Below, piece after piece: positions 4,699-30,105 of a stretch of DNA of 64,000 nt. Below the pieces are notes generated by a model that worked only from the letters and a program-made list of their open reading frames with translations, was not told the DNA's origin and made no database searches. Made by a program: the position numbers and the translations under genes. Within the stretch, counting starts at the first letter, position 1. Each line of letters opens with the position of its first letter. This DNA comes from a virus, in IMG/VR virus record IMGVR_UViG_3300044645_002359, positions 22,355-86,354 of that record, one strand, 5' to 3'.

Positions 4699-6291
4699 AT
4701 GCAAGGTTCCTTTTCTGAACAGTCACTGAAGCAGTACGAAGAGTTAATCGGAGAAATAGCTTCTGTAAACTTTTCCGAATTAAATTCAGATGTGTACGAT
4801 TTCACACGTTGCGTTCGCGCGGACGGTACTGTCTACGGTTCACGAGGAAAGTGCCGCAAGGGACGTGAGGCTGCCGCAGGCGCTGGCCCTTCTCAAGCCC
4901 CGAGGAAGAGTACGGCAGCTCGAATGGCTGCTGCCGCTGAAAAGTTAGAAAGTCCTAAGCAAACTCCGGCCAAAGTTAAGGCACCGGTTCCCGCTCCCGT
5001 AGCAACTCCAGCAGTTAGAACCGTTAAAAAGCCCAGGGCAGCCCCACTCACCGCTGAGGGAAAGGCAGAGAAGAAGTGGCTCGCACAGAAAGATAAATTA
5101 GACGCGATAAAGGCAGAACACGCCAAGATGATTGCTGAGGTTGAAGCGCAGGGGCACAAAGTATACGCCACCGGTACGGGGGCCAGTATGCTTCATAGGC
5201 TGGCTAAAGAGAGGGGAATTGCTACACCGGCTCAGCTATCCAGTATGCGAATAAAACTCTTCCAACAAGAGCCTGAGCGCATCAAAAAAGAAAGGTTGGC
5301 GGAAGAAGAGAAGAAAAGACTGTCGGAAATTGCTGGAACCACTAGAGAACAGCGCAAGGGGATGGTCCGTGAGCGAATTGAGGAGCTGAAGAAGAGCAAA
5401 TATCTAGACACGTTGAAGGACGTTAATAACAACGTCGAAATGATGAAGAAGTGGATAGAAACAGACCCTTCCATGGATACCCTGAAAAACCGTGTTGCTT
5501 TGACGGCAATGCGGTCTTTCCGTGCGCAAATGGTGAGAGAAGCAAGGCTTAAGCGAGAAGAAAAGTACAGGAGCCTTGACGAATTCCTCAAAGAGTCGCC
5601 CAAGTATAACAGAACCCCTGGTTCCAGGGAGCCTATGAAAGCTAAGTATGATGACAGCGAAAGGGAGCAAAAAAGACTTGAAAAGATTTATGAAGCACAA
5701 GGGTTTAACGCTAGACCAGAACTTGTAAGGTCAAGATCTGACCTTGAGAAAAGGAAGGACATCCTAAGAGAGCCTGACGGAAGGCCACTAATTCTCTATC
5801 GAGGGGTATCGGAAGAAAGCTTAGCAAGACAGTTCCAAGGCTCTGGTCCAGACGGAGACAGACACTACCCTGGTCGGGGGGTGTATGGAAACGGGAGTTA
5901 CGCTGCTTCTGCGGGGGGAAATCCGGGTTCTTGGAACACGGACGGAAACTTTGACAAGACTGCACAAAGAACAGCTTCTTCGTATACGAGTAGTGGTGGA
6001 AACCCTAAGGATAAAGTTACAGCCTTCGCTCTTCGTTCGGACGCAAATGTGGTTCAGTTCGAAGGGACAAATCCTGCGCTAAGGGACTTAGAATACAGAA
6101 AATGGTCAAGAGAAATTAGGAAACAGGCGTCAGAGAAATTCGGGGCTGAGTTTAACGATCAGGGCGAAGCTGCCGCTGCTATGGGAATCCACGCCTATAG
6201 AGTTCCAATGAGTTCTGACGAAGACTACTGGATTATTCTAAATCGCGGTGCTGTCATCGCTGCACAAGATTCTCAACTACCAGACTTATGA
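4699..6291 (+). CDS. ADP-ribosyltransferase-like protein (R-S-E-type motifs), N-terminal DFTRCV…GKC module, K/E/A-rich central coiled coil
   Basis: C-terminal region carries LYRG…YTSSGG…QFEG, which resembles the Arg, STS and QxE motifs of ADP-ribosyltransferase toxins and T4 Alt. The N-terminal 45 aa are shared with the ORFs at 23382 and 29773. Confidence 0.5.
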   Translation: MQGSFSEQSLKQYEELIGEIASVNFSELNSDVYDFTRCVRADGTVYGSRGKCRKGREAAAGAGPSQAPRKSTAARMAAAAEKLESPKQTPAKVKAPVPAPVATPAVRTVKKPRAAPLTAEGKAEKKWLAQKDKLDAIKAEHAKMIAEVEAQGHKVYATGTGASMLHRLAKERGIATPAQLSSMRIKLFQQEPERIKKERLAEEEKKRLSEIAGTTREQRKGMVRERIEELKKSKYLDTLKDVNNNVEMMKKWIETDPSMDTLKNRVALTAMRSFRAQMVREARLKREEKYRSLDEFLKESPKYNRTPGSREPMKAKYDDSEREQKRLEKIYEAQGFNARPELVRSRSDLEKRKDILREPDGRPLILYRGVSEESLARQFQGSGPDGDRHYPGRGVYGNGSYAASAGGNPGSWNTDGNFDKTAQRTASSYTSSGGNPKDKVTAFALRSDANVVQFEGTNPALRDLEYRKWSREIRKQASEKFGAEFNDQGEAAAAMGIHAYRVPMSSDEDYWIILNRGAVIAAQDSQLPDL

Positions 6292-6437
6292 ACATTAACG
6301 AACCAAGCACCAGCCGTCAACTTGCTGCCCTGATTCAGGGTGTCAAAGGCGAGCACAGAGACCAATTTATTGAAGACGCTAAGAAAGCGAAAGACATGGG
6401 ATCTTTCATCAAGCACTTTCTGAAATCTTACGAATGA
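6288..6437 (+). CDS. small hypothetical protein (49 aa)
   Basis: ATGA-coupled small ORF, below the track cutoff. Confidence 0.3.
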   Translation: MNINEPSTSRQLAALIQGVKGEHRDQFIEDAKKAKDMGSFIKHFLKSYE

Positions 6438-6607
6438 CCGAAGAAGAGGAAACCTTCGAGGCCACAATGCAGAAACTATTCACTGCAAAGTGGAATATCC
6501 CTCAAGCAACCGCAGCTTTGGGCAAATCGGCGAATAAAGAAAACTGGGAAGAAACGAAAGATCTATTTCGGGAGTTTTGTGCTTTACACCCGCCTGCAAC
6601 CTTTTGA
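6434..6607 (+). CDS. small hypothetical protein (57 aa)
   Basis: ATGA-coupled small ORF. Confidence 0.3.
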   Translation: MTEEEETFEATMQKLFTAKWNIPQATAALGKSANKENWEETKDLFREFCALHPPATF

Positions 6608-6831
6608 GGTTGGCGGAAGGGGAGAAGTTTACCGGACCTTCGGCGAAGCTAAAATATGGGTGCCCTGAGACGTAAATACGTCGCCCATTATGAGAGGGTT
6701 CCCTGCCGAACTAGCAGGGTAGGACTCGGAGCCTAACATTGCGCTCTTAAACTTCTTGTGCCGTGGGAAAACGCACCTTGAAACAGGTGAGTGACCGTTT
6801 CCTATACGGATGTTGAATTCTATTTTACTGA

Positions 6832-7509
6832 ATGCTTGACCTCACTACACTTGTGGCCGTTTCCATCGTTGGAACTGCTGCAACCCCTCTGAGCGGATTC
6901 ACTGAGTTAAACAGACTGGAATACCCTGTCCCTCAGCAAGTCGCTATCAGAGTGATTGCCCCAGAAACGACCCTGGAATCGGGCCTCATTTGCACAGGCT
7001 GCGATCCCACAAAGTTTCTATCGGCTCCCGCTTACAAACTCACACCAGAGCGCAGAGCCCTTTTAAATACCATTCGCTTCGCTGAAGGAACCTGGAAAGA
7101 TGGCCACGAGGATGGCTACCGGGTTTTGTTCGGAGGTCGAATGGTTTCGTCTTTAGATAGACACCCGAACCAAATCCAATACTCCTCGCGCTACACCAGC
7201 GCAGCAGCCGGAGCTTACCAATTCCTTCCGGGAACTTGGGGAGAAGCCTCAAGAAAACTCAACCTTCTAAACTTCGGGCCTAAGAGCCAAGACCAAGCTG
7301 CTCTCTTTTTGATCGAACGGCGTAATGCCTTGAGCCTCGCAGATTCCGGGAAGATCACCCCAACGCTAATCGCAAAGCTAGCTCCTGAATGGGCCTCTCT
7401 TCCGACTTATGGCGGCAACAGCTACTATGGTCAGCCGGTCAAAAGGTATGAGGACCTGCGGCGCTTCTATGAGAGTAACTTGGCGATGCTCCGCCAGGAG
7501 GCAAGCTGA
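6832..7509 (+). CDS. lytic transglycosylase, lambda R-like (glycoside hydrolase family 104 (GH104)) with an about 70-aa N-terminal extension
   Basis: AEGTWKDGHEDGYRVLFGG…AAGAYQFLPGTW…FGPKSQDQAALFLI…WASLP aligns with lambda R over SEGT…GYDVIVGG…GAGRYQLL…FSPKSQDAVALQQI…WASLPG. Confidence 0.7.
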   Translation: MLDLTTLVAVSIVGTAATPLSGFTELNRLEYPVPQQVAIRVIAPETTLESGLICTGCDPTKFLSAPAYKLTPERRALLNTIRFAEGTWKDGHEDGYRVLFGGRMVSSLDRHPNQIQYSSRYTSAAAGAYQFLPGTWGEASRKLNLLNFGPKSQDQAALFLIERRNALSLADSGKITPTLIAKLAPEWASLPTYGGNSYYGQPVKRYEDLRRFYESNLAMLRQEAS

Positions 7510-7613
7510 TGAACGGTTTCCCGAACTTTACTTGCTCGTCGCAACAAGCTACAATGGTAGCGAGCCTGAGTAATCAGGCACTGAGCCGTGGTTGCCAACC
7601 GCAACAAACACGG

Positions 7614-7982
7614 ATGTCGAACTCTAATGTTTTCATGCGTTTTTCCAAATTAGCCTCATTCTTCCTCGTCGCAGGAATTCTTTCCGGAGTACCTGCACAA
7701 GCAAGGCAGTGTGGCCAAGCCAGTTGGTATGGCCCTGGCTTCTACGGGAACAAAACTGCCAACGGTGAAATTTACCGTCGTGGTACCATGACTGCAGCGC
7801 ACCCTTCACTCCCCCTTGGTAGCTGGGTAAGGGTTGTAAACCGAGATAATGGACTCATTGCCGATGTTCGTATTAACGACCGTGGTCCTTACTATGGTGG
7901 TCGAATTCTCGATCTCGGTCACGGTGCTGCAAGGAGCCTTGGAGTTAGTGGCGTGGCCAACGTTTGCATTTCTCGTCTCTGA
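7614..7982 (+). CDS. RlpA-like double-psi beta-barrel (DPBB) protein with a signal peptide
   Basis: ASWYGPGFYGNKTANGE…AAHPSLPLGSWVRVVN…NDRGPY…GRILDLGHGAARSLG matches the RlpA/3D-domain signature; the N-terminus MRFSKLASFFLVAGILSGVPAQA looks like a signal peptide. Confidence 0.6.
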   Translation: MSNSNVFMRFSKLASFFLVAGILSGVPAQARQCGQASWYGPGFYGNKTANGEIYRRGTMTAAHPSLPLGSWVRVVNRDNGLIADVRINDRGPYYGGRILDLGHGAARSLGVSGVANVCISRL

Positions 7983-8037
7983 TCGCCATGGGTGATGCCT
8001 TGCTGGTACTCACCCTTCTTTCCTATACTTCTTAAAA

Positions 8038-8256
8038 GTGACACGATTCAAATTTCGGACCCCTAACGGCTTGACCCGGATTGAGCTTTTAATCTGTGTG
8101 GCTATTTTTGGGATCCTTGCATCAATTGTTGCCGGGGAACTCTCTGGTAAAAGTCCGTACAGAATGAGTGACTGTGTTCGGTCCGGGGGAAATTGGACTG
8201 AAGGTTATGAACTCGGGCATGACACCGCACTTTGCATCTACGGCCCGAGAAAGTAA
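8038..8256 (+). CDS. membrane protein with a prepilin-type N-terminal segment (LTRIELLICVAIFGILASIVAG)
   Basis: Resembles the type IV pilin N-terminal methylation helix; sits downstream of the lysis genes, so it may instead be a holin-like transmembrane protein. Confidence 0.35.
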   Translation: MTRFKFRTPNGLTRIELLICVAIFGILASIVAGELSGKSPYRMSDCVRSGGNWTEGYELGHDTALCIYGPRK

Positions 8257-8276
8257 GTTCAACAACCTAAACTACA

Positions 8277-9248
8277 ATGTCCCAACTCAAAATAGAAACT
8301 CTTTTCAAGTACTTGAAAGTTACAGATTGGGGGGGAGAAGAGGTTTATTTCCCCTTTTACCATCAGAGGCCGTGCCCTCCGCCTGGGACTAGATGGCAAA
8401 AATTTGACCCAGTTGATCTAGGATTCAACACTGGAAATCACTTCCCCCACACCCAGATGTTTGTAGTAGGGAATCCGGATAGGGAAAGTACAAATATGTA
8501 TGTAGCTTTCCGTGAAAAGAGTTTACTAGAAAAGTTCATTTTCACGGTGAAGACACATTTCCACCCCTCAAGAGATGACTTTGTGTTGGTAGATGCAATT
8601 TTGTCTTTTATTAGAAAGTTTCCAGAATGTTGTTCCTCAGAAGCTTTCGAATTACAAAAAGAGATCCTACGGAAAAAAGGAAATTCCGAATTCAGCCGTT
8701 TCGATTTTTACGATAGAAGCCACATATACATTAACATAGTGAGTAAGTCCGAAGCTTCATACAAGGTCCATAACCTGAGGGATAGCTCCCGTTGTGTTAC
8801 AACACTTTCTCCTACAAGCCATTTCATGATTGAGCGGTCGGAGTCTAAAGCCAGGAAACAAAACCCTTTCTTCACGTCAGTGAATCGTAAAATCCTAGAG
8901 ATTACTAAAAAAGATGGGCAGACTTTGTTTTTTCCGATATTGCGAAATTATTTCATGGGAGTCGCAATGAACACTTTTCAAGACGCATTAGATTTTCTAG
9001 ACCTTGTCTCTCCCAATGTATATCCAGACTCGGACGTGCGTACAGTCGGGAAAGCTAAAAAAATCCTAGAAGATGTAACTAGAAGACTTTTTCAACTGAA
9101 AAACAGTTTAAATGCCCTCTCAGCCAACGAAGAGACAAGTAAATGGGTCGTCCAGGAAGTCCAAAAAGTCTATCCGAAGGGGAAAGTTTTTCATGGCTCA
9201 CGGACAACGGCCTATGAGTTCGGCCCTATAGGAGAAACTATGGTATAA
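8277..9248 (+). CDS. hypothetical protein (323 aa)
   Basis: Long ORF with no identifiable motif. Confidence 0.5.
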   Translation: MSQLKIETLFKYLKVTDWGGEEVYFPFYHQRPCPPPGTRWQKFDPVDLGFNTGNHFPHTQMFVVGNPDRESTNMYVAFREKSLLEKFIFTVKTHFHPSRDDFVLVDAILSFIRKFPECCSSEAFELQKEILRKKGNSEFSRFDFYDRSHIYINIVSKSEASYKVHNLRDSSRCVTTLSPTSHFMIERSESKARKQNPFFTSVNRKILEITKKDGQTLFFPILRNYFMGVAMNTFQDALDFLDLVSPNVYPDSDVRTVGKAKKILEDVTRRLFQLKNSLNALSANEETSKWVVQEVQKVYPKGKVFHGSRTTAYEFGPIGETMV

Positions 9249-9404
9249 TCCCCCATGGTAAATCTCCCAATAATCGACCCAATAGCAAGGTGATTGTAAC
9301 CCTGAGAGGGCAAAGTGCTATTTGCACCGGGGTTCATAACCCCACAATCACATTCCGGGATTTGTAACCCGGATCTGTACAGACAAAACATAAACAAAAA
9401 AAAA

Positions 9405-10253
9405 ATGAAAATTCGCATTATTGCTACCTCAGCAGCTATCGCTTCACTCGCCACTCCCGCGCTCGCCGCACCTCAATTTTCTGACGCTGCTCGGACAAAT
9501 TGGGCCTATGGCGCTCTTCAAAACCTCGCTGAAAAGTATGGTTGTGTTGCTGGTTATCCCGATGGTACTTTCCGTGGTAGCAATTCCACCACCCGTTACG
9601 AAAGCGTTGCTCTCGTGAGTGCCTGCATTGATCGGGTTTATGACACCCTGAGCCAAGCTGATCGTCGCATTGCAGACGAGGCTCGCATTGCAATCGTAGC
9701 GACTGATGCTCGTGTTTCTGCCCTTGAGAACACAGCAACTCGGAAAGCGGTTGGAGTCGGCAGTTACGTTGGTGCAGGCGTTAACCTGAATCGTCAAGGC
9801 GTTAGCAGCGATGCCTATGGAAACAATCGCACTGTTGTTGGAGCTACCCTTCAGGGACGTTTCCCCCTGGGTAACCTCTACGGAGTTTCCACTTCTGCCC
9901 GCCCCTATGTAAACTTTGCGGCTGGACCAGATAGCCAAATTGGTTCTGCCCTCGGTGTTCTGGGTACCGTTGACGTTTCCTTGGCTGGGCGTACCATTGG
10001 CGGTATCCTCGTTAGCAGCACTAACCTCTACTTCGGTGCCGGTGGCCAATGGGCTTTGACGAATAATGGTCAGGCCAACTATCAAACTAGCGTTGGTCAA
10101 GGTTCTCAGTTTGTATTTGTTGCCGGTGTTGAGCGTTCCTTCACTCCGTCCCTGGTTGGTTTCGCTGATCTGAAGTTCCCGACCCAGGAAAATGGTGTTG
10201 CTGGAACGGCTTACGCCCCAGTTGGCACTATCGGCCTCGGATTTAAGTTCTGA
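9405..10253 (+). CDS. SLH-domain outer-membrane beta-barrel protein (cyanobacterial Som/OprB-like mini-porin)
   Basis: Signal peptide, then the SLH motif FSDAARTNWAYGALQNLAEKYGCVAGYPDGTFRGSNSTTRYESVALV, then a Gly/Ser/Thr-rich region of alternating residues ending in …GLGFKF, the outer-membrane-protein C-terminal Phe. Confidence 0.6.
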   Translation: MKIRIIATSAAIASLATPALAAPQFSDAARTNWAYGALQNLAEKYGCVAGYPDGTFRGSNSTTRYESVALVSACIDRVYDTLSQADRRIADEARIAIVATDARVSALENTATRKAVGVGSYVGAGVNLNRQGVSSDAYGNNRTVVGATLQGRFPLGNLYGVSTSARPYVNFAAGPDSQIGSALGVLGTVDVSLAGRTIGGILVSSTNLYFGAGGQWALTNNGQANYQTSVGQGSQFVFVAGVERSFTPSLVGFADLKFPTQENGVAGTAYAPVGTIGLGFKF

Positions 10254-10258
10254 TTGCT

Positions 10259-11085: not shown

Positions 11086-12075
11086 ATGATCGCCCTACCC
11101 AACGTCAAGGAAGAAACGGTTATCGAGCCGTTAGTCAAAGAACTGATTCAGGTTACCGTTGAAACAGAAGGCGGTTTGGGTTACGTTCATAGGAAAACTT
11201 TTCAATTCAGTGCAGGAGAGACTCAAGTTCGCCTCAGTCCTTTGCCTACAGGAGTCAGGAAGATTCGAGTTAGGGCGGATATTGAGAGCAGCCAAACTTT
11301 GGTAGAACTTCTTCTGACTTTGGATGCTATTAACAATCTAGAGTACCAAGGTCCTGTCGGATTAACCCTCCCATACCTTCCTTACAGCCGTCAAGACCGC
11401 GCCTGCGCACCTGGCGAGGCTTTTGCCCTTTCTGTTCTTGTAAACTGCCTCGTCCCGTATCTCGGTGCCGACGACACTATCACAACTTGGGATGTTCACA
11501 GCAGTGTGGCACGAACCCTTTTCGATAGTAAATTCCAGGGAGTATTCTATAATGTCTCCGCAGCGAGTCTCTTGCAGAATTTTGAGCTTGAAAAAGATGT
11601 GGTATTCAATCCCTCAACCATTGTCATTGCCCCAGATAAGGGTGCTGTAGACCGGGCCACAGAAGTTCAAAATGTCCTGGGACTAGAACGGACCGTGTAC
11701 GCAACCAAAGTTCGCAATCCGGACGACGGCCAGATCCTAAGAACAGAAGTTCCCGAAGACGTGAATTACCGAGGCAAAAACCTTTTGATTGTAGACGACA
11801 TTTGTGATGGTGGCCGCACTTTCATCGAACTTGCCAAGGTTTTGCGAGAATACGAGCCGTCACGTATTGACCTTTATGTGACACATGGGATCTTCTCAAA
11901 AGGTTTCAAAGTTTTTGAGGGCTTTATTGACAACATCTACGTAGCCAACCTGTTGATGGAACTCATTGAGCACCGCGATGGACGAAAGTCGTTCCCATCA
12001 GGTTCTGACCTCTGTGAAAATGTGGGATGTTATAGAGAATTTCCGAGCAACGTGACTTATCTCCGAAACATTTAA
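11086..12075 (+). CDS. ribose-phosphate pyrophosphokinase (PRPP synthetase)-like; candidate ADPR-PP synthetase (Adps) of an NAD-reconstitution pathway
   Basis: 329 aa; PRPP/PRTase motif NLLIVDDICDGGRTF; Prs-like length; immediately upstream of the NAMPT-like gene. Confidence 0.65.
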   Translation: MIALPNVKEETVIEPLVKELIQVTVETEGGLGYVHRKTFQFSAGETQVRLSPLPTGVRKIRVRADIESSQTLVELLLTLDAINNLEYQGPVGLTLPYLPYSRQDRACAPGEAFALSVLVNCLVPYLGADDTITTWDVHSSVARTLFDSKFQGVFYNVSAASLLQNFELEKDVVFNPSTIVIAPDKGAVDRATEVQNVLGLERTVYATKVRNPDDGQILRTEVPEDVNYRGKNLLIVDDICDGGRTFIELAKVLREYEPSRIDLYVTHGIFSKGFKVFEGFIDNIYVANLLMELIEHRDGRKSFPSGSDLCENVGCYREFPSNVTYLRNI

Positions 12076-12113
12076 CCCTGCTCGACAACCCAAGTCAAAC
12101 CTCTTAACAAACA

Positions 12114-13616
12114 ATGAAACTCTTCGCCCCTAACCTTACAGACTTCTACAAGACGGGTCACTACCGCCAGTACCCTGAAAACACGGAGTTCATCTACTCG
12201 AACATGACCGCACGGTCGGACCGTCTCGCCAAGATGCTCCCCGACTACGACCACAAAGTAGTGGTAGCAGGTATTCTGGGCACAGCAGCTTGGTACCTTC
12301 GCGACCTTTGGAACGATACTTTCTTCAGTCAACCTAAAGACCGAGTACTTGAAAAGTACCGCAGGCGAATGGACTCGGCTCTCGGACCTGGCGCCGTGAG
12401 CACAGCCCACCTGGCCGAACTTCACGACCTCGGTTACCTTCCAATCCGAGTAAAGGCTCTCCCAGAAGGCACCCGTGTCAATCTGCGCGTCCCCTTCCTC
12501 ACGGTGGAGAACACACACCCCGACTTCTATTGGGTGACTAACTACATTGAAACTGCCCTGTCGGCTGAAGTTTGGAAGCATGTCAACAATGCAACCATCG
12601 CCTACGAGTTTCGCCGCCTACTTGACCGATACGCAGATCTAACAGGGACTGACCGGTCTTTTGTTGACTTCCAGGCGCACGACTTTTCCTTCCGAGGAGT
12701 TAGTGGTATTCACGATGCTGCTGCCCACGGGATTGGACACCTGTTCTCCTTCAAGGGTACGGACAACATCCCGGCAATTGACTTCTTGGAAGATTACTAC
12801 AACGTTGAAGGCGAATTTATCGCCGGTGGCGTCCCTGCTACCGAACACAGTGTTATGTGCACCGGGGGCCAAGATACTGAGATTGACACCTACAGGCGTC
12901 TGATTTCTGAAACTTACCCGACTGGTATTGTTAGCATTGTTAGCGACACTTGGGACTACTGGAACGTTCTCACGAACATTGCTGCCCAACTGGAGGAGAC
13001 GATCCTGAATCGCCAACCGGATGCCCTTGGCCTTGCCAAAGTTGTATTCCGCCCTGATAGTGGAGACCCCGAGAGAATCCTTTGCGGCGACCCGGACGCT
13101 GAACCCGGCAGTCCAGCCTTCAAAGGCTCTCTGCAGCTCCTCTGGGACCTCTTCGGAGGCACCGTAAACGAGCAGGGCTTCCGCGTCCTTAACCCTCGCG
13201 TGGGCCTCATCTACGGTGACTCGATCACCCTTCCTAGAGCTCTTTCCATTCTGGAGAACATGCACAGCAACGGATGGGCCAGCGGTAACGTTGTTTTCGG
13301 TGTGGGTTCGTACACTTACCAGTTCCACACTCGCGATACATTCGGCATCGCTTTCAAGACGACTTGGACTCAAATCAACGGTCAACCTGTCGAAGTTATG
13401 AAAGATCCGATTACCGACCGTGGAACTAAGAAGTCGGCCAAAGGGTTGCTTCGTGTTGAAGAAGAGAATGGCGAGTACGTTCTCTACGAGCAACAAAGTC
13501 GAGATGAAGAGAGTCGAGGAGAACTGCGAACCGTATTTATGAATAGCCAGGTCTTCGAAAGACCCGACGAGAGTTTGACGAACATTCGCAGTCGTCTTGT
13601 CTCGCCAAATTCCTAA
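12114..13616 (+). CDS. nicotinamide phosphoribosyltransferase (NAMPT/NadV)-like; candidate Namat
   Basis: 500 aa; the N-terminus NLTDFYKTGHYRQYPENTEFIYSNMTAR matches the NAMPT start (TDSYKVTHYKQYPPNT…); overall NAPRTase-family architecture. Confidence 0.75.
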   Translation: MKLFAPNLTDFYKTGHYRQYPENTEFIYSNMTARSDRLAKMLPDYDHKVVVAGILGTAAWYLRDLWNDTFFSQPKDRVLEKYRRRMDSALGPGAVSTAHLAELHDLGYLPIRVKALPEGTRVNLRVPFLTVENTHPDFYWVTNYIETALSAEVWKHVNNATIAYEFRRLLDRYADLTGTDRSFVDFQAHDFSFRGVSGIHDAAAHGIGHLFSFKGTDNIPAIDFLEDYYNVEGEFIAGGVPATEHSVMCTGGQDTEIDTYRRLISETYPTGIVSIVSDTWDYWNVLTNIAAQLEETILNRQPDALGLAKVVFRPDSGDPERILCGDPDAEPGSPAFKGSLQLLWDLFGGTVNEQGFRVLNPRVGLIYGDSITLPRALSILENMHSNGWASGNVVFGVGSYTYQFHTRDTFGIAFKTTWTQINGQPVEVMKDPITDRGTKKSAKGLLRVEEENGEYVLYEQQSRDEESRGELRTVFMNSQVFERPDESLTNIRSRLVSPNS

Positions 13617-18688: not shown

Positions 18689-19789
18689 TCAACTTTCTGG
18701 AGAAGAGGAACTAAAGGAGTTTACTTGATACTTGACACTTTCACTAAGCTCATCTAGACTCATGTCCCGAATGTCTCTCTCCCAGATGTATATTACCGTA
18801 AACCCGTATTTCTCCGCAACTCCCTTCTTCTCTATATCCCTCTCCCAAATTTCTTCCACAAGGGTACTACCCCCTCCCGGAAGGTGAATACTGTCCCCAA
18901 ACGAATAGATTTCGGGGTTAGCGTGCCAATAGTCCCCCTGGACCTCTATTAGCACTTTGGTCCCCGTAATCAAAAAGTCAAATTGCCTTCTGGCAACAAA
19001 TCGAGAGAACTGAAATTTCAGACCCGCAAGTTCTAAAGCTTGAGACACCTTTTCTTCAACCTTGTTCATTTTCGTAAAAAACTTACCACTCAAGAAGTCA
19101 TCATTGACTTGCTTCCAGAATTTCCTTGTAAGCTCTCCTCTTCTTTCGGAGTACTCCTGCTTTCTTTCCTCGCCCCACCCCCTTCTCGTTTCCCTGAGTT
19201 TTTCTGCTATTGAACTCATCTTTTCCAAGGAAAAAGAAGCTCTAGTCAGAGAAATTGCCTCCGGGTTGGTAACCCTAAGCTTACCATAGCGCTCAAGATG
19301 AGTTTCGTTTATCTTTTCTTTGACATCTGAAAGTTGGAAAACATTGTCCACCCCGTACTTTGATCTAACTGTTTCATTTCTCTTGTGGTAAAATTCAGTT
19401 CCCTTACAGAGAACATTATTCACTCCGTACTTTTCTTGAGAAACTTTCACCATTTTACTTTTCTTTTGATTTGAACCATTAGCTTCTTTAATTTTTCTTA
19501 CAGGTATCTCAAAGTAGTCCATTAGAAAAGATAGTCTCCTGCCCGGTAATCCAAAAAGCTCTTTGAAGTCCGGGAAGCTGAACCCCTTAATCAGGTACAA
19601 GTGCTTTAGTTTTCTGCCACTCTCTAGTTTCAGCGCCGGGTAGCTAAGCTTCAAGGTGTTAAACCTGTACTCCTTTTCCGATAAACCAGGCCCCTTAAGA
19701 CAGGTTTTCAAATGAATCTTCCTTCCACACTCCTTAAGACAAACAAAGCAAACCAAACTCTTAACTAGAACCCCCATGAAAATCTCCAA
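18689..19789 (-). CDS. free-standing homing endonuclease (Vsr/DUF559-like PD-(D/E)xK C-terminal domain, repeated KYGVxNV N-terminal modules)
   Basis: The only − strand gene; C-terminal VLIEVQGDYWHANPE…ERDIEKK…GFTVIYIWERDI resembles a Vsr-like endonuclease domain; it sits between the IntN and IntC halves. Confidence 0.6.
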   Translation of the reverse strand: MEIFMGVLVKSLVCFVCLKECGRKIHLKTCLKGPGLSEKEYRFNTLKLSYPALKLESGRKLKHLYLIKGFSFPDFKELFGLPGRRLSFLMDYFEIPVRKIKEANGSNQKKSKMVKVSQEKYGVNNVLCKGTEFYHKRNETVRSKYGVDNVFQLSDVKEKINETHLERYGKLRVTNPEAISLTRASFSLEKMSSIAEKLRETRRGWGEERKQEYSERRGELTRKFWKQVNDDFLSGKFFTKMNKVEEKVSQALELAGLKFQFSRFVARRQFDFLITGTKVLIEVQGDYWHANPEIYSFGDSIHLPGGGSTLVEEIWERDIEKKGVAEKYGFTVIYIWERDIRDMSLDELSESVKYQVNSFSSSSPES

Positions 19790-20654
19790 AATAGAAAAGA
19801 TAGAAAGTGACTCCCACCTATATGATATACAAACTTTTACCCGTAACTTCTACGCTGAGGGGGTATTGGTACACAATAGCTTAATCAAGCTCTTCAACTA
19901 CAACGGGGACTGGATTGTTTCGACGTCCGGATCGGTGGCAGCAGCTTCGGAAGTTGGTTCCACTGGGCGTTCTTTTGAGGAACTGTTCTGGCTTGTCTTT
20001 GACGAAGTTGGTTATTCTCGGGAATGGCTCGATGAGGGTCTGTGCTATATCTTCGAACTGTGCCACCGCGATAACCGCATCGTTGTGGATTATGCAGAGC
20101 CTCAGTTACCGCTGCTGGCTGTGCGCGACCGTTCCAACGATTTCGAAGAGCTTGAACTTGTTTCGTTCTGCAACCTGTTCGGGTTCAAAGCTGCCAAGTC
20201 GTATGACCTGGGGAGCATGGAAGGCTTGATGGCAGTCGTGAACGATCGTGGCGCCGACCACGAAGGGTTTATCCTGTTTGACGGTGTTGGTCGTGCGAAA
20301 GCAAAGTCCGATGTGTACTGCCAAATGCACCGTGTTCGCGGAAACGGCGATCCGGACTTCTCCGAGCTTTTTCTGAACGACGATTTGGAAGAATTCCTAC
20401 TGCACTTCCCTGAGTACCGTGAGGGCTTCGACGTTCACCTGCGTTCCATCGACATAATGGAAGTTGCTGTGGAAGAGATCATGGGGGTTTACAACCACTT
20501 GAATCAGAAGGACTTTGCTCAAGTTGTAATTGCTAAGGAGAGGGAACTGTCGGGGGCTTGTTTTGCGATTCGCTCCGGTAAAGTTGGCTCCTTCGGTCAG
20601 TGGCTGGAAGGCTTGTCTCCGAAGAAGCTGGATGCCCTGCTGGGTATCAACTGA
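19776..20654 (+). CDS. split-intein IntC (…FYAEGVLVHN|S) fused to the RNA ligase 1 C-extein
   Basis: MKISKIEKIESDSHLYDIQTFTRNFYAEGVLVHNS gives intein blocks F and G with a +1 Ser. The extein SLIKLFNYNGDWIVSTSGS…EGFILFDGVGRAKAKSDVY matches T4 Rnl1 DGSLVST…KSKGS and motifs IV and V EGYVAV…KIKSDWY. Confidence 0.65.
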   Translation: MKISKIEKIESDSHLYDIQTFTRNFYAEGVLVHNSLIKLFNYNGDWIVSTSGSVAAASEVGSTGRSFEELFWLVFDEVGYSREWLDEGLCYIFELCHRDNRIVVDYAEPQLPLLAVRDRSNDFEELELVSFCNLFGFKAAKSYDLGSMEGLMAVVNDRGADHEGFILFDGVGRAKAKSDVYCQMHRVRGNGDPDFSELFLNDDLEEFLLHFPEYREGFDVHLRSIDIMEVAVEEIMGVYNHLNQKDFAQVVIAKERELSGACFAIRSGKVGSFGQWLEGLSPKKLDALLGIN

Positions 20655-22045: not shown

Positions 22046-22405
22046 ATGGCCGAAATCAAAGTAGTCAACAAGTACCACATCGGCGGGAGGCCGATGAAGC
22101 CCCCGGAAGGAGTCATTCGTGCAGCAGTTTACCGCAGCACACCTTTAGGCAACCCTTTCAAAATGGTTAACTCTTCTATTGAGGAGAGGAACAGGGTGTG
22201 CGACGCTTACGAACAATGGTTACCAGCTAAGCTCCTGCAAGATGGAGCTGAGTTAGCCCAGTTCAACGAACTACTGAAACTAGCTCAAACACCGGGGTGC
22301 GAGGCACTAGAACTAATCTGCCATTGCGCCCCAAAACGTTGCCACGGAGACACCATTAAACGCTTACTCGAAACAGAACTTCAAAATGAAATTACCTTTG
22401 ACTAA
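22046..22405 (+). CDS. DUF4326-like protein
   Basis: GNPFKM…RVCDAYEQWL…CHCAPKRCHGD matches the DUF4326 pattern GNPF…Y..WL…C.C.P..CHGD. Confidence 0.45.
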   Translation: MAEIKVVNKYHIGGRPMKPPEGVIRAAVYRSTPLGNPFKMVNSSIEERNRVCDAYEQWLPAKLLQDGAELAQFNELLKLAQTPGCEALELICHCAPKRCHGDTIKRLLETELQNEITFD

Positions 22406-22625
22406 CGTCCTGTCAGAACTCTCTACTGAAGACAAGAATCTTTACACGGCACTTTTGAGTGTCGTCACAGTTGTAATTCTGCTCCTGCTGGGAATGACCT
22501 CTTGTGCTATCACGGAAAGTCGAGAGCGGATTAATAGAACAATCCTAGATTGCAGAAGTACAGCTGTTAATAGAGTCGAGTCAACAGATACACTCGACTT
22601 GATTTGTGGGAAACTGCCTCAGTGA
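22386..22625 (+). CDS. small membrane protein (79 aa)
   Basis: Transmembrane segment LLSVVTVVILLLLGMTSCAI. Confidence 0.35.
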   Translation: MKLPLTNVLSELSTEDKNLYTALLSVVTVVILLLLGMTSCAITESRERINRTILDCRSTAVNRVESTDTLDLICGKLPQ

Positions 22626-23362
22626 CACACTCCCGATATGCCATTATCGGAGACGTTCACTCTCAAGCATTCCCCTTGAAGAATGCCCTAGACTACTGTT
22701 ACGATAACAACTTAACTCCAATTATTCTTGGCGACCTTTTTGATTCGCAGTGTCAGGTTTCAGAGTCAGTTTCTGTTTACAACCTTGTAAGAAAGTCTCA
22801 GGGCGATCTTGGAGCGATTGTACTTCGCTCGAACCACCAGCACCTCCTTGAGAAACTTATCAAAAAAGAAGAGGTTTCCCTTAAAAAAGACTTGTGTAAA
22901 ACAGTCAGAGAGTTTCAAGAGGCAGGAATTTGTCTAACTGAGGTAGGGCAGTGGCTTGAAACTTTCCCTTACGTTTTCGCCTTCCGAGACTCTCGAGGAC
23001 AAGAGTACAGAGTCGCTCACGCGGAAATTCCTGCTTCAGTAAAGGTACCGAACTTCGATCAAACCTGGATGTATCTTCACCCCACGGAACAAGAGCTGCG
23101 ATGCCTGCTTTGGGGCGCCGATTACTCCCTGCCCAACCGTGACCGGTTCTGGTGGCTCGGGAAGCCCGAGAGGGACTGGGTAGCCGTCGCGGGCCATTAC
23201 CACAAGGTTGTCAACGATGGCCGCTCTCTCGTCCTCGACGCTGGGTGTGGAGGGAAGACCCGCGCCTGGTACGACAAGCGTCCCCCTGCGTTACTTCTCT
23301 ACGACGTTGAGGTCCAAAGCCTGATTGAATTCCCGGCTTTTGATAACTCGGTCGTAGGGTAA
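22622..23362 (+). CDS. metallophosphoesterase, PPP/ApaH-like (paralog 1)
   Basis: YAIIGDVHSQ…ILGDLFDS…LRSNHQHLL are PPP-family motifs; GTGA-coupled GTG start inferred. Confidence 0.6.
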   Translation: MTHSRYAIIGDVHSQAFPLKNALDYCYDNNLTPIILGDLFDSQCQVSESVSVYNLVRKSQGDLGAIVLRSNHQHLLEKLIKKEEVSLKKDLCKTVREFQEAGICLTEVGQWLETFPYVFAFRDSRGQEYRVAHAEIPASVKVPNFDQTWMYLHPTEQELRCLLWGADYSLPNRDRFWWLGKPERDWVAVAGHYHKVVNDGRSLVLDAGCGGKTRAWYDKRPPALLLYDVEVQSLIEFPAFDNSVVG

Positions 23363-23381: not shown

Positions 23382-24032
23382 TTGATAATGAATCCTGGGT
23401 CAATCTCCGAAAGCACTCGCGAACTTGTATTTGACTTTACTCGGTGCGTCAAAGCCGACGGGAGCTTTTATGGTACGTCAGGTAAGTGCCGAAAAGGCTC
23501 CGAAGTTGATGCCAAGGAAAAACCCTATAAAGTAGGAGTAACTTGGGGCAAGTACAATATTCCAACCCCAGGCCACGCTCGCGTTGTCAAGAACCTGCTC
23601 AAGAAATCTCAGGTTGTGAACGTGATTATGAGCGGAGCGAAGACCAACGTCGACTGGAACTTGCGAAATCTAATGTTTCGCCGAGTGCTCAAGCAACAAG
23701 GGGTGGACGTTTCTCGTGTGAAATTCGTTCACGCCTCAAATACCTTTGAAGCTCTGACAAAGATCATTGATTCTCAAGGTTCGAAAAATGTTCTCCTTGC
23801 ACTTGGCGAAGATCGTAAGAACTACCTAGATGGACTGACCAAAAAGTTAGGGATCGGAGGGCAGTTAATCCCTCGTGCCGCTGGGTCGGAAAGTTCAACT
23901 ATGATGCGTGGGTTGATTGACTCCAAGGACTTCAAAAAGTTAGGAGAAATATACGGCAATGATCCTTATTTGGTGAAACTGGCTAGAATTATCCGGAACG
24001 AAGAGACGAAGAGGGACGGTAAACCGAACTGA
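23382..24032 (+). CDS. NMN/NaMN adenylyltransferase-like nucleotidyltransferase with the N-terminal DFTRCV…GKC module
   Basis: N-terminus LVFDFTRCVKADGSFYGTSGKCRKG is the shared module; then GKYNIPTPGHARVV (an HxGH-type motif) with cytidylyltransferase-fold similarity; paralog of 47873. Confidence 0.5.
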   Translation: MIMNPGSISESTRELVFDFTRCVKADGSFYGTSGKCRKGSEVDAKEKPYKVGVTWGKYNIPTPGHARVVKNLLKKSQVVNVIMSGAKTNVDWNLRNLMFRRVLKQQGVDVSRVKFVHASNTFEALTKIIDSQGSKNVLLALGEDRKNYLDGLTKKLGIGGQLIPRAAGSESSTMMRGLIDSKDFKKLGEIYGNDPYLVKLARIIRNEETKRDGKPN

Positions 24033-24711: not shown

Positions 24712-24746
24712 TACAGCGAATTCAACCCACTTAAACAACCGAAACC

Positions 24747-25657: not shown

Positions 25658-25732
25658 ACAATGTCTTACCGCTCCCGTCGAAATTCAACCACCATGTCAT
25701 CTTCCTCATCTTCTGGATGAGGATTTTCCGGA

Positions 25733-26100: not shown

Positions 26101-26344
26101 TTACCAACATGTTTGAAAATTTAAAACAAAAATTCAGCGAGTGGCTCGAAGACACTACCCACTGGTTTAAAATCGGTGAGTCAACTATGTGGAGAGCTCG
26201 GAACAAACATTAAATTTAACAACCTGACACAAATGACAATACTACTCTCTTTTCTCCTAGTGGCAGCTACACTGGCTGTGAATCTTTCTATCTGGAGAGC
26301 TGCTGAGACTAAAGACGATCTCAAAAAGAATAAAACTAGTTTTT

Positions 26345-26426
26345 AGGGGGGACGGTTAACCGACTTTCTGCGGGGCGGAAAGGTTCGGTTCCCCCCCTTG
26401 TTTCTACTGTGCAGAAACGCTATGAT
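26345..26426 (+). promoter_or_regulatory. hairpin-promoter cassette copy 9 (long nested hairpin)
   Basis: GGGGGGAcggttaaccg…ggttcggtTCCCCCC; -35 TTGTTT; spacer CTACTGTGCAGAAA; -10 TATGAT. The conserved ATGAAC at 26433 opens only a 6-codon ORF. Confidence 0.5.
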
Positions 26427-26461
26427 TATTGCATGAACATGACACGAGCCTAATCTACAAA

Positions 26462-27586
26462 ATGGCAAACATCGAACGCAAACTTGCATCTGTCCGCAAA
26501 GTAACGGACATTCGCCCCATCCCCGACGCTGACGCCATCGAATGCGCCATTGTAGGTGGTGGTTGGCCCGTGGTAGTGAAAAAGGGAGAATTTCAGGTTG
26601 GCGACCTCGCCATCTACTTCGAGATTGATTCCTGGATTCCTCACGAACTTGCCCCATTCCTCTCCAAGGGGAAGAAACCAAGGGAGTATAATGGAGTGAA
26701 GGGGGAGAGGCTGAAAACTGTCAGGCTCCGTGGTCAAGTCTCCCAGGGTCTCCTGCTCCGCTTCTCGGACATCTCTCCAAGCTTCTACGTTGTCTCGCTA
26801 GCCGAACCTTACGGGGGGAGGGAATTTCTCCGAGTTGATCAGTGCGTGTGGGAGGAAGGTGAGGACTTCACTCTAGAGTTCGGAATTCAGAAATGGGAAG
26901 CTCCTGTCCCAGCTTGCTTGGCTGGTCAAGTTCGCGGGAACTTTCCTAGCTTCCTCGTGAAGACGGACCAGGAACGTTGTCAGAATGTTGTGGAGGAAAT
27001 CTTTGAGCGCCATAAGGGTGAAACCTACGAAGTTACTATCAAACTTGATGGGTCTTCCTGCACGGTCTACGTCAAGGACGGGGAAGTTGGGGTGTGCAGC
27101 CGTAACCTTGACCTCAAGGAAACCGAAGGCAATAGTTTCTGGAAGGCTGCTAGGGATCAGGGCATTATCGATGCTATGCTTGCATACAATGGGAAGACTG
27201 GTCACAGTATTGCCTTGCAGTCGGAAACCCTTGGAGAAGGCATCCAGGGCAACCAGGAAGGAATCAAGGGACAACGCCTATTCCTGTTTGACATCTTCGA
27301 TATCGACAGCCAAACTTACATGAAGCCAGGGGCCAGAATGAACCTCTTGGACAAGTACCTAGTTCCATTAGGCGCTGATTTAACCCATACCCCTGTCCTA
27401 CACCCCGCAATGTGTGTAACTGATAGTTCCGCCAACCTTGATGAGCTACTAGCGTACGCCGATGGCCCGTCCATGAACCCCAAAGTCAAACGCGAAGGCT
27501 TAGTATTCAAGTCCAATGACTCTGAGTTTTCCTTCAAGGCCATTAGTAATGAATGGCTCTTATCCAAGGGAAAGAAGGGTGGCTGA
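26462..27586 (+). CDS. ATP-dependent RNA ligase (KxDG nucleotidyltransferase with an N-terminal OB-like extension; DraRnl/Rnl5-like)
   Basis: Motif I IKLDGSS, motif IV EGLVFK, motif V FKAISNEWLLSKGKK; an N-terminal domain of about 170 aa precedes the nucleotidyltransferase. Confidence 0.65.
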   Translation: MANIERKLASVRKVTDIRPIPDADAIECAIVGGGWPVVVKKGEFQVGDLAIYFEIDSWIPHELAPFLSKGKKPREYNGVKGERLKTVRLRGQVSQGLLLRFSDISPSFYVVSLAEPYGGREFLRVDQCVWEEGEDFTLEFGIQKWEAPVPACLAGQVRGNFPSFLVKTDQERCQNVVEEIFERHKGETYEVTIKLDGSSCTVYVKDGEVGVCSRNLDLKETEGNSFWKAARDQGIIDAMLAYNGKTGHSIALQSETLGEGIQGNQEGIKGQRLFLFDIFDIDSQTYMKPGARMNLLDKYLVPLGADLTHTPVLHPAMCVTDSSANLDELLAYADGPSMNPKVKREGLVFKSNDSEFSFKAISNEWLLSKGKKGG

Positions 27587-27642
27587 TGCCAGTGCCCAAA
27601 GGACCCGTTGGCTGAATATTTAAAGTTTATCCACTCCGAAAA

Positions 27643-27864
27643 ATGCCCCCCCTAATCCGCTACGCAAACTGGCACATTCGCCGTTATAGGCAAAGAAATT
27701 CTACTCTGGAGCTAGCAATTATCTTTGCTTTTCATTGTTTGATTGCTTGTATTTCCTTGGCCGTAGGGGTCATGTCAACCCCTGTGAATCCCCTATTGGT
27801 GTCATGGGGCATCTCACTCCTTGCCGTTACCTGCTACATTCATCGCCCCATTCGCTACTACTGA
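27643..27864 (+). CDS. small membrane protein (73 aa)
   Basis: Two hydrophobic helices. Confidence 0.35.
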   Translation: MPPLIRYANWHIRRYRQRNSTLELAIIFAFHCLIACISLAVGVMSTPVNPLLVSWGISLLAVTCYIHRPIRYY

Positions 27865-27940
27865 CCGTCCCGCAACCCTTCACCGAAACATCCGACCCTC
27901 AACTACAAAAAGGGTATACCACCCGTACTCACACACCGCA

Positions 27941-28246
27941 ATGACTAAGCCCTTAGCCTACAACTACCCGCCCGGAACCACGCCGGAAGCAATCGAAGCC
28001 TTCCGCACCATGTGGGGACAAACCCCCGAAGATGACATTCGTTTGGGTTCAACCTTTGAGATTTTCCTGAAGGGTTATGTGTGCGGAAGAAATTTATCTA
28101 GGAATTTAGACCCTCAAGTAAGAGATAATGATAGTATACGAGATGAAATCAACGACTTGACTCAAAGGATTGAAGACTTGGAAAGATTCAAAGAAGCTAC
28201 AGTGAGTTATGATTCCCATGGCAATTATGCCAGACATGTTGGTTGA
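27941..28246 (+). CDS. hypothetical protein (101 aa)
   Basis: ORF from the first ATG. Confidence 0.4.
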   Translation: MTKPLAYNYPPGTTPEAIEAFRTMWGQTPEDDIRLGSTFEIFLKGYVCGRNLSRNLDPQVRDNDSIRDEINDLTQRIEDLERFKEATVSYDSHGNYARHVG

Positions 28247-28289
28247 TACTGTAATTAATTACCATGCAAACAAATAAACCACAACAACC

Positions 28290-28562
28290 ATGATCGACAC
28301 CATCCCGCCAACAACATTCGATACTCGAACAGATACCATTAGGTATCCGGACGGCGTTGAAGAAACCTTAGTCCAATACCAAAAACGCAACCGCCAATTT
28401 GAATATATCCGGGGCCTGCAAAATGCTTTAGAAAGAATGAAGGTCCTATATCAGAACCCCGGCTGCCTTACCGAAGGGGAGTATAACGCAGCGAAGGACG
28501 CCATCCAAGGGCAATTTGACTATTGGGAAATGAATCTGTTTATCGAATTCGGAGACAAATGA
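28290..28562 (+). CDS. hypothetical protein (90 aa)
   Basis: ORF. Confidence 0.4.
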   Translation: MIDTIPPTTFDTRTDTIRYPDGVEETLVQYQKRNRQFEYIRGLQNALERMKVLYQNPGCLTEGEYNAAKDAIQGQFDYWEMNLFIEFGDK

Positions 28563-29026
28563 CCATTACCAAATTCTCAGGCCAATTCAGTTTCCTGTCA
28601 AACTTTTATGAGAGCGTTCTAGAATACGAGGGGATCAAATACCCCACAGTCGAACACGCCTTTCAAGCAGCTAAGACTCAGGATCCCGAAGCTCGCCAGC
28701 AAATTGCAAATATGCAAAAGCCGAGCGAGGCCAAAGCTGCGGGAAACCGTAACGGCATTATCAGGGACTTTGACCCCGTAGAGTGGGAACTTAGAAAAAA
28801 CGGAGTCATGGAAGAGTTACTACGCATTAAATTTCAGAACCCAGATCTAAAAAACCTCCTAGCACAAACAGGAAACGCAAAACTAATCGAAGGCAACACT
28901 TGGGGAGACACTTATTGGGGAGTTGATGTTGTGACCGGCGAGGGCGCTAACAAACTTGGTGTCATCCTTGAGGGGATTCGCAACGAGATTGCTGAGGCAA
29001 TGGCAAAGAATAAGCGTCAATCTTGA
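28559..29026 (+). CDS. NADAR-domain protein (YbiA-like)
   Basis: FSGQFSFLSNFYESVLEYEGIKYPTVEHAFQAAK…GNTWGDTYWG matches the NADAR/DUF1768 signature F.G.Y.FLSNF…Y.T.EHAFQA.K. Confidence 0.7.
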   Translation: MTITKFSGQFSFLSNFYESVLEYEGIKYPTVEHAFQAAKTQDPEARQQIANMQKPSEAKAAGNRNGIIRDFDPVEWELRKNGVMEELLRIKFQNPDLKNLLAQTGNAKLIEGNTWGDTYWGVDVVTGEGANKLGVILEGIRNEIAEAMAKNKRQS

Positions 29027-29041
29027 ACATCCGCACAAACA

Positions 29042-29563
29042 ATGACTGCACTCAACAAAACCGAAGGCGACCTATTAGCAATGGCTCGCGAGGGCCAGTT
29101 TGACATAATCGTTCACGGGGCAAACTGCTTCAACAAAATGGCTTCTGGAATTGCCGGGCAAATCAGCCGTGAACACCCTGAGGCTGCTGAAGCCGACCGC
29201 GCCACAGAGTCTGGTGACAGGGGCAAGCTTGGCAACTATACTATGGCTCACGTGCGAGAGATATGGTTGATACAACGTGCCTTCACGATCGTTAACGCTT
29301 ACACTCAGTACACCTATGGGCGAGAAGGAGACTTGTTTGAGTACAACGCCTTTGAAAAGTTTCTGGCAAATTTTGAGACTTTTCTGAGAAAAGTGTACGT
29401 GTTGGCGGGTGCCGACAAGAAAACCAGGGTTGGCTTCCCTTACATCGGTTGTGGCCTTGCAGGTGGAGACGAGCAAAGAATAGTAGAGATGATCGAAAAC
29501 TTCTCTGTGTCTTGCCAAGACATTGCGGATGTCACTCTTGTTAGATTTGTCCGAGATACATGA
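29042..29563 (+). CDS. macro-domain protein (ADP-ribose binding or processing)
   Basis: FDIIVHGANCFNKMASGIAGQI matches the macro-domain core, with a phosphate-binding-loop-like GCGLAGGD. Confidence 0.55.
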   Translation: MTALNKTEGDLLAMAREGQFDIIVHGANCFNKMASGIAGQISREHPEAAEADRATESGDRGKLGNYTMAHVREIWLIQRAFTIVNAYTQYTYGREGDLFEYNAFEKFLANFETFLRKVYVLAGADKKTRVGFPYIGCGLAGGDEQRIVEMIENFSVSCQDIADVTLVRFVRDT

Positions 29564-29748
29564 ACTCACTACAATGGCTTAACGTTGCCAGTTGCTCTGC
29601 CCGCCGCTTATCAAGCCTTCGCTTCAGAGGTAGTTCCACATCGGAAACTAAGAAGGGAGAGAAAGAAACTCTCGATATGGCGCTCGCCAAGGTTAATACC
29701 ACTATCCTAAACCGTCTGAGGAAGCAACTCCCGAACCCTCAAGGGTAA
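29560..29748 (+). CDS. hypothetical protein (62 aa)
   Basis: ATGA overlap. Confidence 0.3.
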   Translation: MNSLQWLNVASCSARRLSSLRFRGSSTSETKKGEKETLDMALAKVNTTILNRLRKQLPNPQG

Positions 29749-29772
29749 AAGTAGTATAACTGCGGCTTCAAC

Positions 29773-30105
29773 ATGCAAGGTTCATTCTCTGAAGATTCTC
29801 TTAAAATCTTTCACAATTTGGCTTCACAGTCCCAAGGTTTAAGCTATAGTGAGTCTAGGGAAGATTCGTATGACTTTACACGCTGTGTAAGACCAAATGG
29901 GACCAGCTTTGGAACCTCAGGGAAATGCACACCACCGAATCGCCAAGCGGCGCCAAGTAATCTTGTAGCGGAAGTTAACCGCGAGGAAGTAGAGGCTCGG
30001 CAGTTAATGTCCGGTGGCCGCAGAAACAGCAGGGCTATGCAGCGCCGCGCAAAAGAACTACTTGAGAGTGCTCGAAGAAAGAGGAGCGGCAAGCCGACGG
30101 CATGA
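29773..30105 (+). CDS. small basic protein made of the shared N-terminal DFTRCV…GKC module plus an Arg-rich tail
   Basis: MQGSFSEDSLK…YDFTRCVRPNGTSFGTSGKC is near-identical to the N-terminus of 4699. Confidence 0.5.
   Translation: MQGSFSEDSLKIFHNLASQSQGLSYSESREDSYDFTRCVRPNGTSFGTSGKCTPPNRQAAPSNLVAEVNREEVEARQLMSGGRRNSRAMQRRAKELLESARRKRSGKPTA

Follow-up and report, generated by a model that had tools for sequence, protein, structure and literature searches.

A 64,000-nt stretch of IMG/VR virus record IMGVR_UViG_3300044645_002359 (positions 22,355 to 86,354 of that record; hereafter the window) carries three open reading frames (ORFs), P1, P2 and P3, whose products begin with a common N-terminal module. 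We refer to this module as the leader and to the protein behind it as the cargo. Listed below are the three ORFs, their leaders, two further parts of P1, which contains an ADP-ribosyltransferase (ART)-fold domain, and a leaderless paralogue of P2; E-values refer to a profile hidden Markov model (HMM) of the leader unless stated otherwise.

4699-6291, + strand: P1, 530-aa ORF with leader, K/A/P-rich linker, coiled-coil-like region and ART-fold effector
4699-4869, + strand: leader copy 1, P1 aa 1-57 (E 7e-27); MQGSFSE, helix, NFSE, then YDFTRCVRADGTVYGSRGKCRKGRE
4870-5088, + strand: basic low-complexity linker, P1 aa 58-130, isoelectric point (pI) 10.8
5677-6291, + strand: ART-fold effector domain, P1 aa 327-530
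23388-24032, + strand: P2, 214-aa ORF with a short leader, then an NMNAT/cytidylyltransferase-like domain
23388-23507, + strand: leader copy 2, P2 aa 1-40 (E 1.5e-16, profile positions 29-55); MNPGSISE...FDFTRCVKADGSFYGTSGKCRKGSEV
29773-30105, + strand: P3, 110-aa ORF of pI 10.1 with leader, then a basic tail with SGGRRNSRAMQ
29773-29946, + strand: leader copy 3, P3 aa 1-58 (E 2e-26); variant ending GKCTPPNR
47873-48394, + strand: NMNAT-like paralogue of P2 lacking a leader (33% identical to P2 aa 48-210, alignment E 4e-30)

All three N-termini contain (Y/F)DFTRCV(R/K)x(D/N)G(T/S)x(Y/F)G(T/S)xGKC, and P1 and P3 also have MQGSFSE.SLK, a helix and a second (F/Y)SE in common. BLASTP aligned P1 and P3 at 41% over 86 aa (E 3e-18), P1 and P2 at 64% over 33 aa (E 2e-11), and P2 and P3 at 63% over 30 aa (E 1.5e-9). 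Beyond the module, no significant pairwise BLASTP similarity was found among the three proteins. Their coding DNA is dissimilar, apart from 21 nt at the start of P1 and P3, and therefore the genes are not recent duplications. A six-frame regular expression scan and the profile HMM with filters off agreed on exactly three module copies in the window, with the fourth-ranked HMM match at only E 3.7. A first-pass annotation of this DNA had described a 45-aa, near-identical module at the start of three otherwise unrelated proteins. The sharing is borne out, with three copies and similarity that is N-terminal only; "near-identical" overstates the 41-64% identity actually observed. The module has 57-58 aa in P1 and P3, made up of the helix and a Cys hairpin, whereas that of P2 lacks the helical half and is thus only ∼40 aa long. 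For P2, the TTG start at 23382 was replaced by the ATG at 23388 (MNPGSISES...) used in public gene calls. The three genes are scattered over the window, and each begins 10-25 nt after the preceding ORF.

Alignment of 71 copies gave the leader consensus MxGxFSEEALxxYxxLxAxxxxxDFSEGxxYDFTRCVRPDGSxYGTxGKCRKGTE, in which F35, C38, G43, G47, G50, and C52 are invariant. Across 319 copies, the core is preceded by (D/N)-F-(S/A)-E-G-(E/D)-(T/S)-Y and the second Cys is followed by R-K-G-(T/S)-E, with Glu conserved at three leader positions. In the P3 family the leader is a variant that ends GKCT(P/A)PNR rather than GKCRKG. The full leader is net acidic (pI 5.4), whereas its core is basic, and so is the linker behind it; the family-wide composition of the next 60 residues is 16% K, 13.5% A, and 9% E, with zero Cys. 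In an AlphaFold2 model built with the 71-copy alignment, residues 7-20 are predicted to form a helix and residues 37-39/45-48 a beta-hairpin; confidence is moderate, with a predicted local distance difference test (pLDDT) score of 67.5. No Pfam or PHROGs match to the leader was found in P1, P2 or P3. Comparison of the leader profile with PDB sequences gave a best E of 0.04, to unrelated lyases, and a Foldseek search with the model returned no structural neighbour.

The first-pass annotation had also considered a small two-Cys metal- or nucleotide-binding domain. A Walker A/P-loop reading was rejected: the domain in question amounts to ∼25 residues of hairpin with the spacing G-x3-G-x2-G-K-C, not G-x4-G-K-[ST] in an NTPase fold, and nucleotide binding was discarded because the glycine spacing is not that of Walker A. 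Nor can the leader be a single-domain zinc ribbon or knuckle, which needs four ligands; only two Cys are invariant and no His is conserved, too few ligands for a self-contained zinc finger. What is left of the metal-binding idea is a site shared between molecules, which is compatible with a role of the leader in loading proteins into virions and is not an alternative to it.

The search for the module on other cargo in metagenomes, which the first-pass annotation had proposed, was performed as an exhaustive profile search of 1.84 billion representatives; a word-indexed protein search was too insensitive (22 short matches). The leader was found in 921 protein clusters at E ≤ 1e-3 and in 400 at E ≤ 1e-10. 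In nearly all of the best 150 matches it occupies residues 1-55, on proteins ranging from 68 to 699 aa. When the leader was masked in 171 proteins and the cargo clustered, 80 unrelated groups were obtained, 70 of them singletons. The module is thus portable, as first suggested from three proteins, and in relatives it is spread over many cargo types instead of being confined to one protein family. Pfam assigned cargo to ADPrib_exo_Tox/ART, Pkinase/ABC1/APH, CTP_transf_like, DUF3626, and DUF6496, and most cargo gave no Pfam match.

The leader is restricted to phages and is nearly absent from cellular genomes. Only three matches were detected in 185,579 species genomes, all of them on short contigs of metagenome-assembled genomes. 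Among 50,697 phage records searched by tblastn with three leader variants, it was present in Synechococcus phage S-CBWM1 alone, on the NMNAT and on gp165, whose gene lies directly upstream of the tail-sheath, portal, and capsid block. IMG/VR yielded 104 confirmed leader matches in 75 loci, and the leader-bearing contigs carry psbA and a TerL that shares 50-60% identity with its S-CBWM1 counterpart.

Leader genes are clustered in these relatives. Modules numbering 2-7 lie within ≤20 kb in 38 of the 75 loci, and all 168 leader copies at the IMG/VR loci are on one strand. At loci L077, L014, and L032, up to six consecutive genes are each headed by a leader, in arrays that start 2-6 kb downstream of terL and encode kinase, P1-type ART, DUF3626-like, NMNAT, acetyltransferase-like (a label assigned by eye), and basic cargo. 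Approximately one in eight leader proteins has two or three copies, the internal ones preceding each downstream domain. Such polyproteins include P0048, P0038 (module, NMNAT, module, and a domain of no named type), P0082 (module, acetyltransferase-like domain, module, kinase), and P0059 (module, acetyltransferase-like domain, module, P1-type ART); the acetyltransferase-like labels were again given by eye. Internal copies start exactly at (D/N)F(S/A)E, immediately past the end of the preceding domain.

The cargo is strongly depleted in Cys. In P1, P2, and P3 all Cys residues are confined to the leader pair (C38 and C52 in P1, C20 and C34 in P2). In 253 distinct leader proteins whose cargo is 80 aa or longer, we counted 33 Cys in 62,094 cargo residues (0.053%); 233 of the 253 proteins are Cys-free outside the leader. 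The background, taken as other + strand ORFs of at least 150 aa on the same DNA, contains 1.15% Cys, with 85 of 605 Cys-free (Fisher p = 3e-110). The depletion is 22-fold. Leaderless controls are normal in Cys content: the NMNAT-like paralogue at 47873-48394 has two Cys, compared with none in the P2 cargo, and leaderless S-CBWM1 proteins contain 7 (PknB-like kinase), 11 (DNA polymerase), and 5 (TerL). Most simply, this pattern would mean that the cargo either resides for a while in an oxidising virion or travels unfolded, and that the Cys of the leader serve a specific role.

Evidence from virions concerns S-CBWM1. Its NMNAT, the orthologue of P2 (36.8% identity over 87% of P2 length), carries the leader and begins MLGHIDPAVLDYVLTLDFTRCERPDGTAYGTAGTCRKGVE. 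This protein was detected in the virion proteome according to PMC10665884 and PMC9602691, both citing Xu et al. (2018), and the APH, ChoK, and RIO kinases of the same phage are reported in virions in PMC10665884. These kinases carry a second, four-Cys leader, (K/R)(K/R)C-x2-GK(S/P)C-x3-C(I/V)-x5-6-C, which heads five S-CBWM1 proteins, namely gp106, the RIO, ChoK, and APH kinases, and gp023, annotated as a virion structural protein (NC_048106; loci 66779-, 70410-, 117840-, 118742-, and 132540-). The RIO and ChoK kinases appear to have been annotated with starts downstream of leader 2. Leader 2 also occurs at IMG/VR loci L010 and L022-L065; no copy was found in the window. Proteins headed by this leader include kinases, gp023-like virion proteins, and P1-type ART proteins. 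Leader-2 cargo contains 0.024% Cys.

The two leaders are swapped with each other and with a MuF head domain. Leader-1 and leader-2 genes adjoin in 27 of the 75 loci, and homologues of the P1 effector domain occur behind either leader or without one. In PSS2 gp030 (locus L002; 1499 aa), a P1-type effector domain forms the tail of a MuF and Zeta-toxin head protein, with PF04233 at residues 154-270. All four Cys of gp030 lie inside the MuF domain; they form a C-x2-C...C-x-C cluster at aa 240-268, which mirrors the pattern of Cys in the vehicle only. P1 aa 327-523 align with gp030 aa 1180-1379 at 37% identity (E 5e-33), and P1 residues 202-523 match phrog_16619, a minor head protein (E 2e-22). P1 thus shares its C-terminal effector domain with polyvalent MuF proteins; PF04233 (Phage_Mu_F) itself had no match in P1, P2 or P3.

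The cargo of P1 has the split beta-sheet NAD+ pocket of the ART fold. Candidates for the ART triad (H-Y-E or R-S-E) are the invariant H90, Y102, and R69 (alignment A5, domain numbering), with no invariant catalytic Glu assignable, and P1 gave no Pfam ART match. P2 matches PF01467 (CTP_transf_like) at E 0.031 and 14.9 bits, under the 21-bit cut-off; a TPGH motif of the (H/T)xGH form is present, and the relative P0038 passes at E 4e-7. The window phage encodes an NMNAT-like protein both with the leader (P2) and without it (47873-48394, + strand). The tail of P3 has a pI of 11.7, and its orthologues are P0001, P0002, and P0020. The P3 family (P0001, P0002, P0020, P0024, P0042, and P0045) has its own tail motif, SGGRR(H/N)SRAMQ, in P3 aa 58-110 (29947-30105). 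Judging from domain type only, P1 may be an ART that modifies a host target in the manner of T4 Alt, P2 a nucleotidyltransferase active on arrival that would support the NAD+ pool, and P3 a basic internal protein.

We compared the leader with known systems that place non-structural proteins in phage heads or shells. The T4 capsid-targeting sequence (CTS) of IPI-III and Alt is likewise a portable N-terminal signal; the unrelated proteins that bear it, among them an ART and small basic proteins, are located in the head and injected, and in both cases the N-terminus is amphipathic and conserved Glu residues are possible protease sites. However, the CTS is ∼10 residues long, ends in (L/I)xE, and is removed by gp21, whereas the leader has 40-58 aa with an invariant C-x13-C hairpin and is ∼5 times longer. 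In length and cleavage site the leader is therefore not of the T4 type; its own conserved motifs are F(S/A)E and G(T/S)E. The two have no sequence relationship, the leader also occurs internally in polyproteins, and its hosts are S-CBWM1-like, not T4-like, phages. MuF (SPP1 gp7-like) head proteins such as PSS2 gp030 resemble leader proteins in the P1-type ART-fold effector, in the diverse enzymes per vehicle, and in the Cys confined to the vehicle. They differ in that the MuF vehicle domain exceeds 100 aa, compared with ∼55 aa for the leader, and leader cargo is mostly encoded by separate genes in arrays.

The N-terminal propeptide systems for inner-body and ejection proteins of phiKZ- and SPN3US-like jumbo phages and the Dar system of phage P1 also load many non-structural proteins into large heads in an orderly manner and eject them as anti-defence factors. 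They rely on paralogous families, on propeptides removed by a protease at S/A/G-x-E or on hierarchical protein-protein loading, and none has a shared Cys-hairpin leader. Encapsulin and microcompartment peptides are alike by analogy only: a short portable tag with a flexible linker sends unrelated enzymes into a shell (HK97-fold for encapsulins), but these tags have 10-20 residues, are usually C-terminal and Cys-free, and the shells are cellular organelles. In the cyanophage A4 pre-ejectosome (PDB 9k3a; PMC12002296), a disulfide joins Cys5 of one ejection protein to another ejection protein; A4 differs in being a podovirus with four giant ejection proteins and no leader homologue. Full-text searches of the literature retrieved no description of the leader motif or of any cyanophage packaging leader, and the literature found notes only the recurrence of kinases and NMNAT-like enzymes in cyanophage virions. 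The leader is an undescribed sequence family that belongs to none of the families compared here and probably fills a known kind of role.

We favour, with some confidence, the interpretation that the leader is a virion-loading module, combining capsid targeting with ejection. The first-pass annotation had likewise proposed a capsid-targeting or injection signal akin to the T4 CTS. That proposal gains indirect support from the S-CBWM1 NMNAT in virions, the exchange with leader 2 and MuF, and the Cys-free cargo; the homology to the T4 CTS is not there. The portability of the leader, its restriction to phages, and the arrays of leader genes near terL in related contigs, with leader-2 genes alongside, also count in favour of virion loading. 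Late in infection, the leader would dock its cargo to a component inside the procapsid or to other leader-bearing proteins through its acidic amphipathic helix, the (D/N)F(S/A)E motif, and the basic beta-hairpin bracketed by two invariant Cys, and the cargo would therefore be enclosed ahead of DNA packaging. The Cys pair probably tethers the cargo, either by a shared metal site or by a disulfide in the oxidised virion. Upon infection, the Cys-free cargo, linked to the leader by the flexible basic linker, would exit with the DNA and act immediately in the cyanobacterial cytoplasm. As a speculation, a protease might cut at F(S/A)E and G(T/S)E, removing leaders and also resolving polyproteins; Pfam gave no matches for the S-CBWM1 head protease and the neighbouring head genes.

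Several points weigh against virion loading. P1, P2, and P3 are known from genes alone, the phage being uncultured, and virion detection concerns the S-CBWM1 orthologue of P2. The S-CBWM1 detections are second-hand, going back to Xu et al. (2018), and CsCl-purified virions may carry abundant contaminants (a caveat raised in PMC9602691). The docking step is proposed with no partner identified for it. The AlphaFold2 model is of moderate confidence and has no structural neighbour. In the window, the leader genes sit among NAD+/ADP-ribose and RNA-repair genes, not among structural genes. Finally, Cys depletion could in principle serve Cys chemistry of the leader itself in the cytoplasm rather than life in the virion.

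The gene setting in the window would suit a module that acts inside the cell. A small metal-binding or dimerising leader might gather phage enzymes into a complex or onto a host structure with no packaging involved, an explanation that we regard as unlikely but the most plausible of the alternatives. The placement of the window genes among metabolic counter-defence genes agrees with it, as does the predicted helix and hairpin, which does not resemble an autonomous fold; with no more than two invariant Cys, the leader could form a full metal site only together with a partner. This explanation leaves unaccounted for a cargo 22-fold depleted in Cys, the swapping with MuF and with the leader of virion-detected kinases, the published detection of the NMNAT in virions, and the terL-adjacent position in relatives. 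A processing role is less probable still. Here the leader would be a tag or pro-domain whose cleavage sites, F(S/A)E and G(T/S)E, split polyproteins or hold toxic enzymes inactive independently of the virion. Internal copies that begin exactly at (D/N)F(S/A)E behind the preceding domain, Glu conserved at three positions, and cargo that includes potentially toxic ARTs and kinases would all fit. Most copies, however, stand at the very start of single-domain or purely basic proteins, which leaves nothing to separate, no protease is conserved alongside the leader genes, and a cleavage site does not account for the invariant Cys and Gly. Processing could also be a sub-step of virion loading, as in T4.

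The lowest probability goes to a nucleic-acid-binding motif, in which the basic hairpin (RCVRPDG...GKCRKG) and the K/A-rich linker would bring enzymes to phage or host DNA or RNA. The core and the linker are indeed basic, and the cyanophage A4 ejection proteins touch DNA via Arg/Lys clusters (PMC12002296). On the other hand, the leader resembled no DNA-binding fold or family in Pfam, PDB sequence, and Foldseek searches, the full leader is net acidic, and it is not obvious why NMNAT-like and kinase cargo would need DNA. Were DNA binding to result in co-packaging, this explanation would merge with virion loading. None of the three alternatives covers Cys depletion, exchange with MuF and leader 2, and virion detection together.

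Beyond virion loading as such, a broader and more tentative scenario may be drawn for the whole clade, which we hold to be possible rather than probable. A large clade of cyanophages, most of them uncultured, might use a universal Cys-based tag to load and inject an exchangeable enzyme arsenal, with two unrelated mini-leaders, the two-Cys hairpin and the four-Cys knuckle, interchangeable with MuF. The metal or disulfide tether would be released by the reducing host cytoplasm, multi-leader polyproteins would be cut into individual effectors, and the pairing of leader with Cys-free cargo would make the repertoire of injected effectors (more than 900 protein clusters) legible from sequence.

The window also encodes other functions on the + strand. 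NAD+/ADP-ribose genes (PRPP-synthetase-like, NAMPT, NADAR, a weak macro-domain match, and ADP-ribosylglycohydrolase) are found at 11086-13616, 28523-29563, and 54655-55704; together with the two NMNAT-like genes they look like an arsenal for NAD+ reconstitution and de-ADP-ribosylation. Two metallophosphatase paralogues, at 22604-23362 just upstream of P2 and at 30350-31114 just downstream of P3, are 48% identical and share the identical stretch FQEAGICLTEVGQWLETFPY; in S-CBWM1 a phosphatase gene adjoins the NMNAT gene too. The P2 region is flanked by an Rnl1-like and an Rnl2-like RNA ligase (PHA02142 OB-fold plus RNA_ligase) at 19776-20654 and 26429-27586, respectively, and a DUF4326 gene lies at 22046-22405, which suggests an RNA or tRNA repair set. 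Two Tet/JBP-type 2-oxoglutarate-Fe dioxygenase genes at 58372-59859 and 61062-62057 suggest DNA base hypermodification. Directly downstream of P1, a cluster of likely cell-wall-related genes (6832-10253) includes, at 7509-7982, a DPBB lytic-transglycosylase-like gene and, at 9315-10253, one for an SLH-domain protein; no Pfam match was obtained for the ORF at 6832-7509.

That hundreds of unrelated enzyme domains are almost devoid of Cys is unusual as an evolutionary signature and merits explanation in itself. If virion loading is correct, the leader would mark proteins injected before gene expression by a clade of abundant freshwater and estuarine cyanophages, the set comprising ARTs, kinases, NMNAT-like, GNAT-like, and DUF3626-like enzymes, and basic internal proteins. 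This would account for the repeated appearance of kinases and NMNAT-like enzymes in cyanophage virion proteomes, leader plus Cys-free cargo would serve as a sequence-only predictor of ejected effectors, and the leader would offer a compact tag of ∼55 aa for putting foreign proteins into phage heads. The injected proteins would then be a first line of resistance to NAD+ depletion and other host defences.

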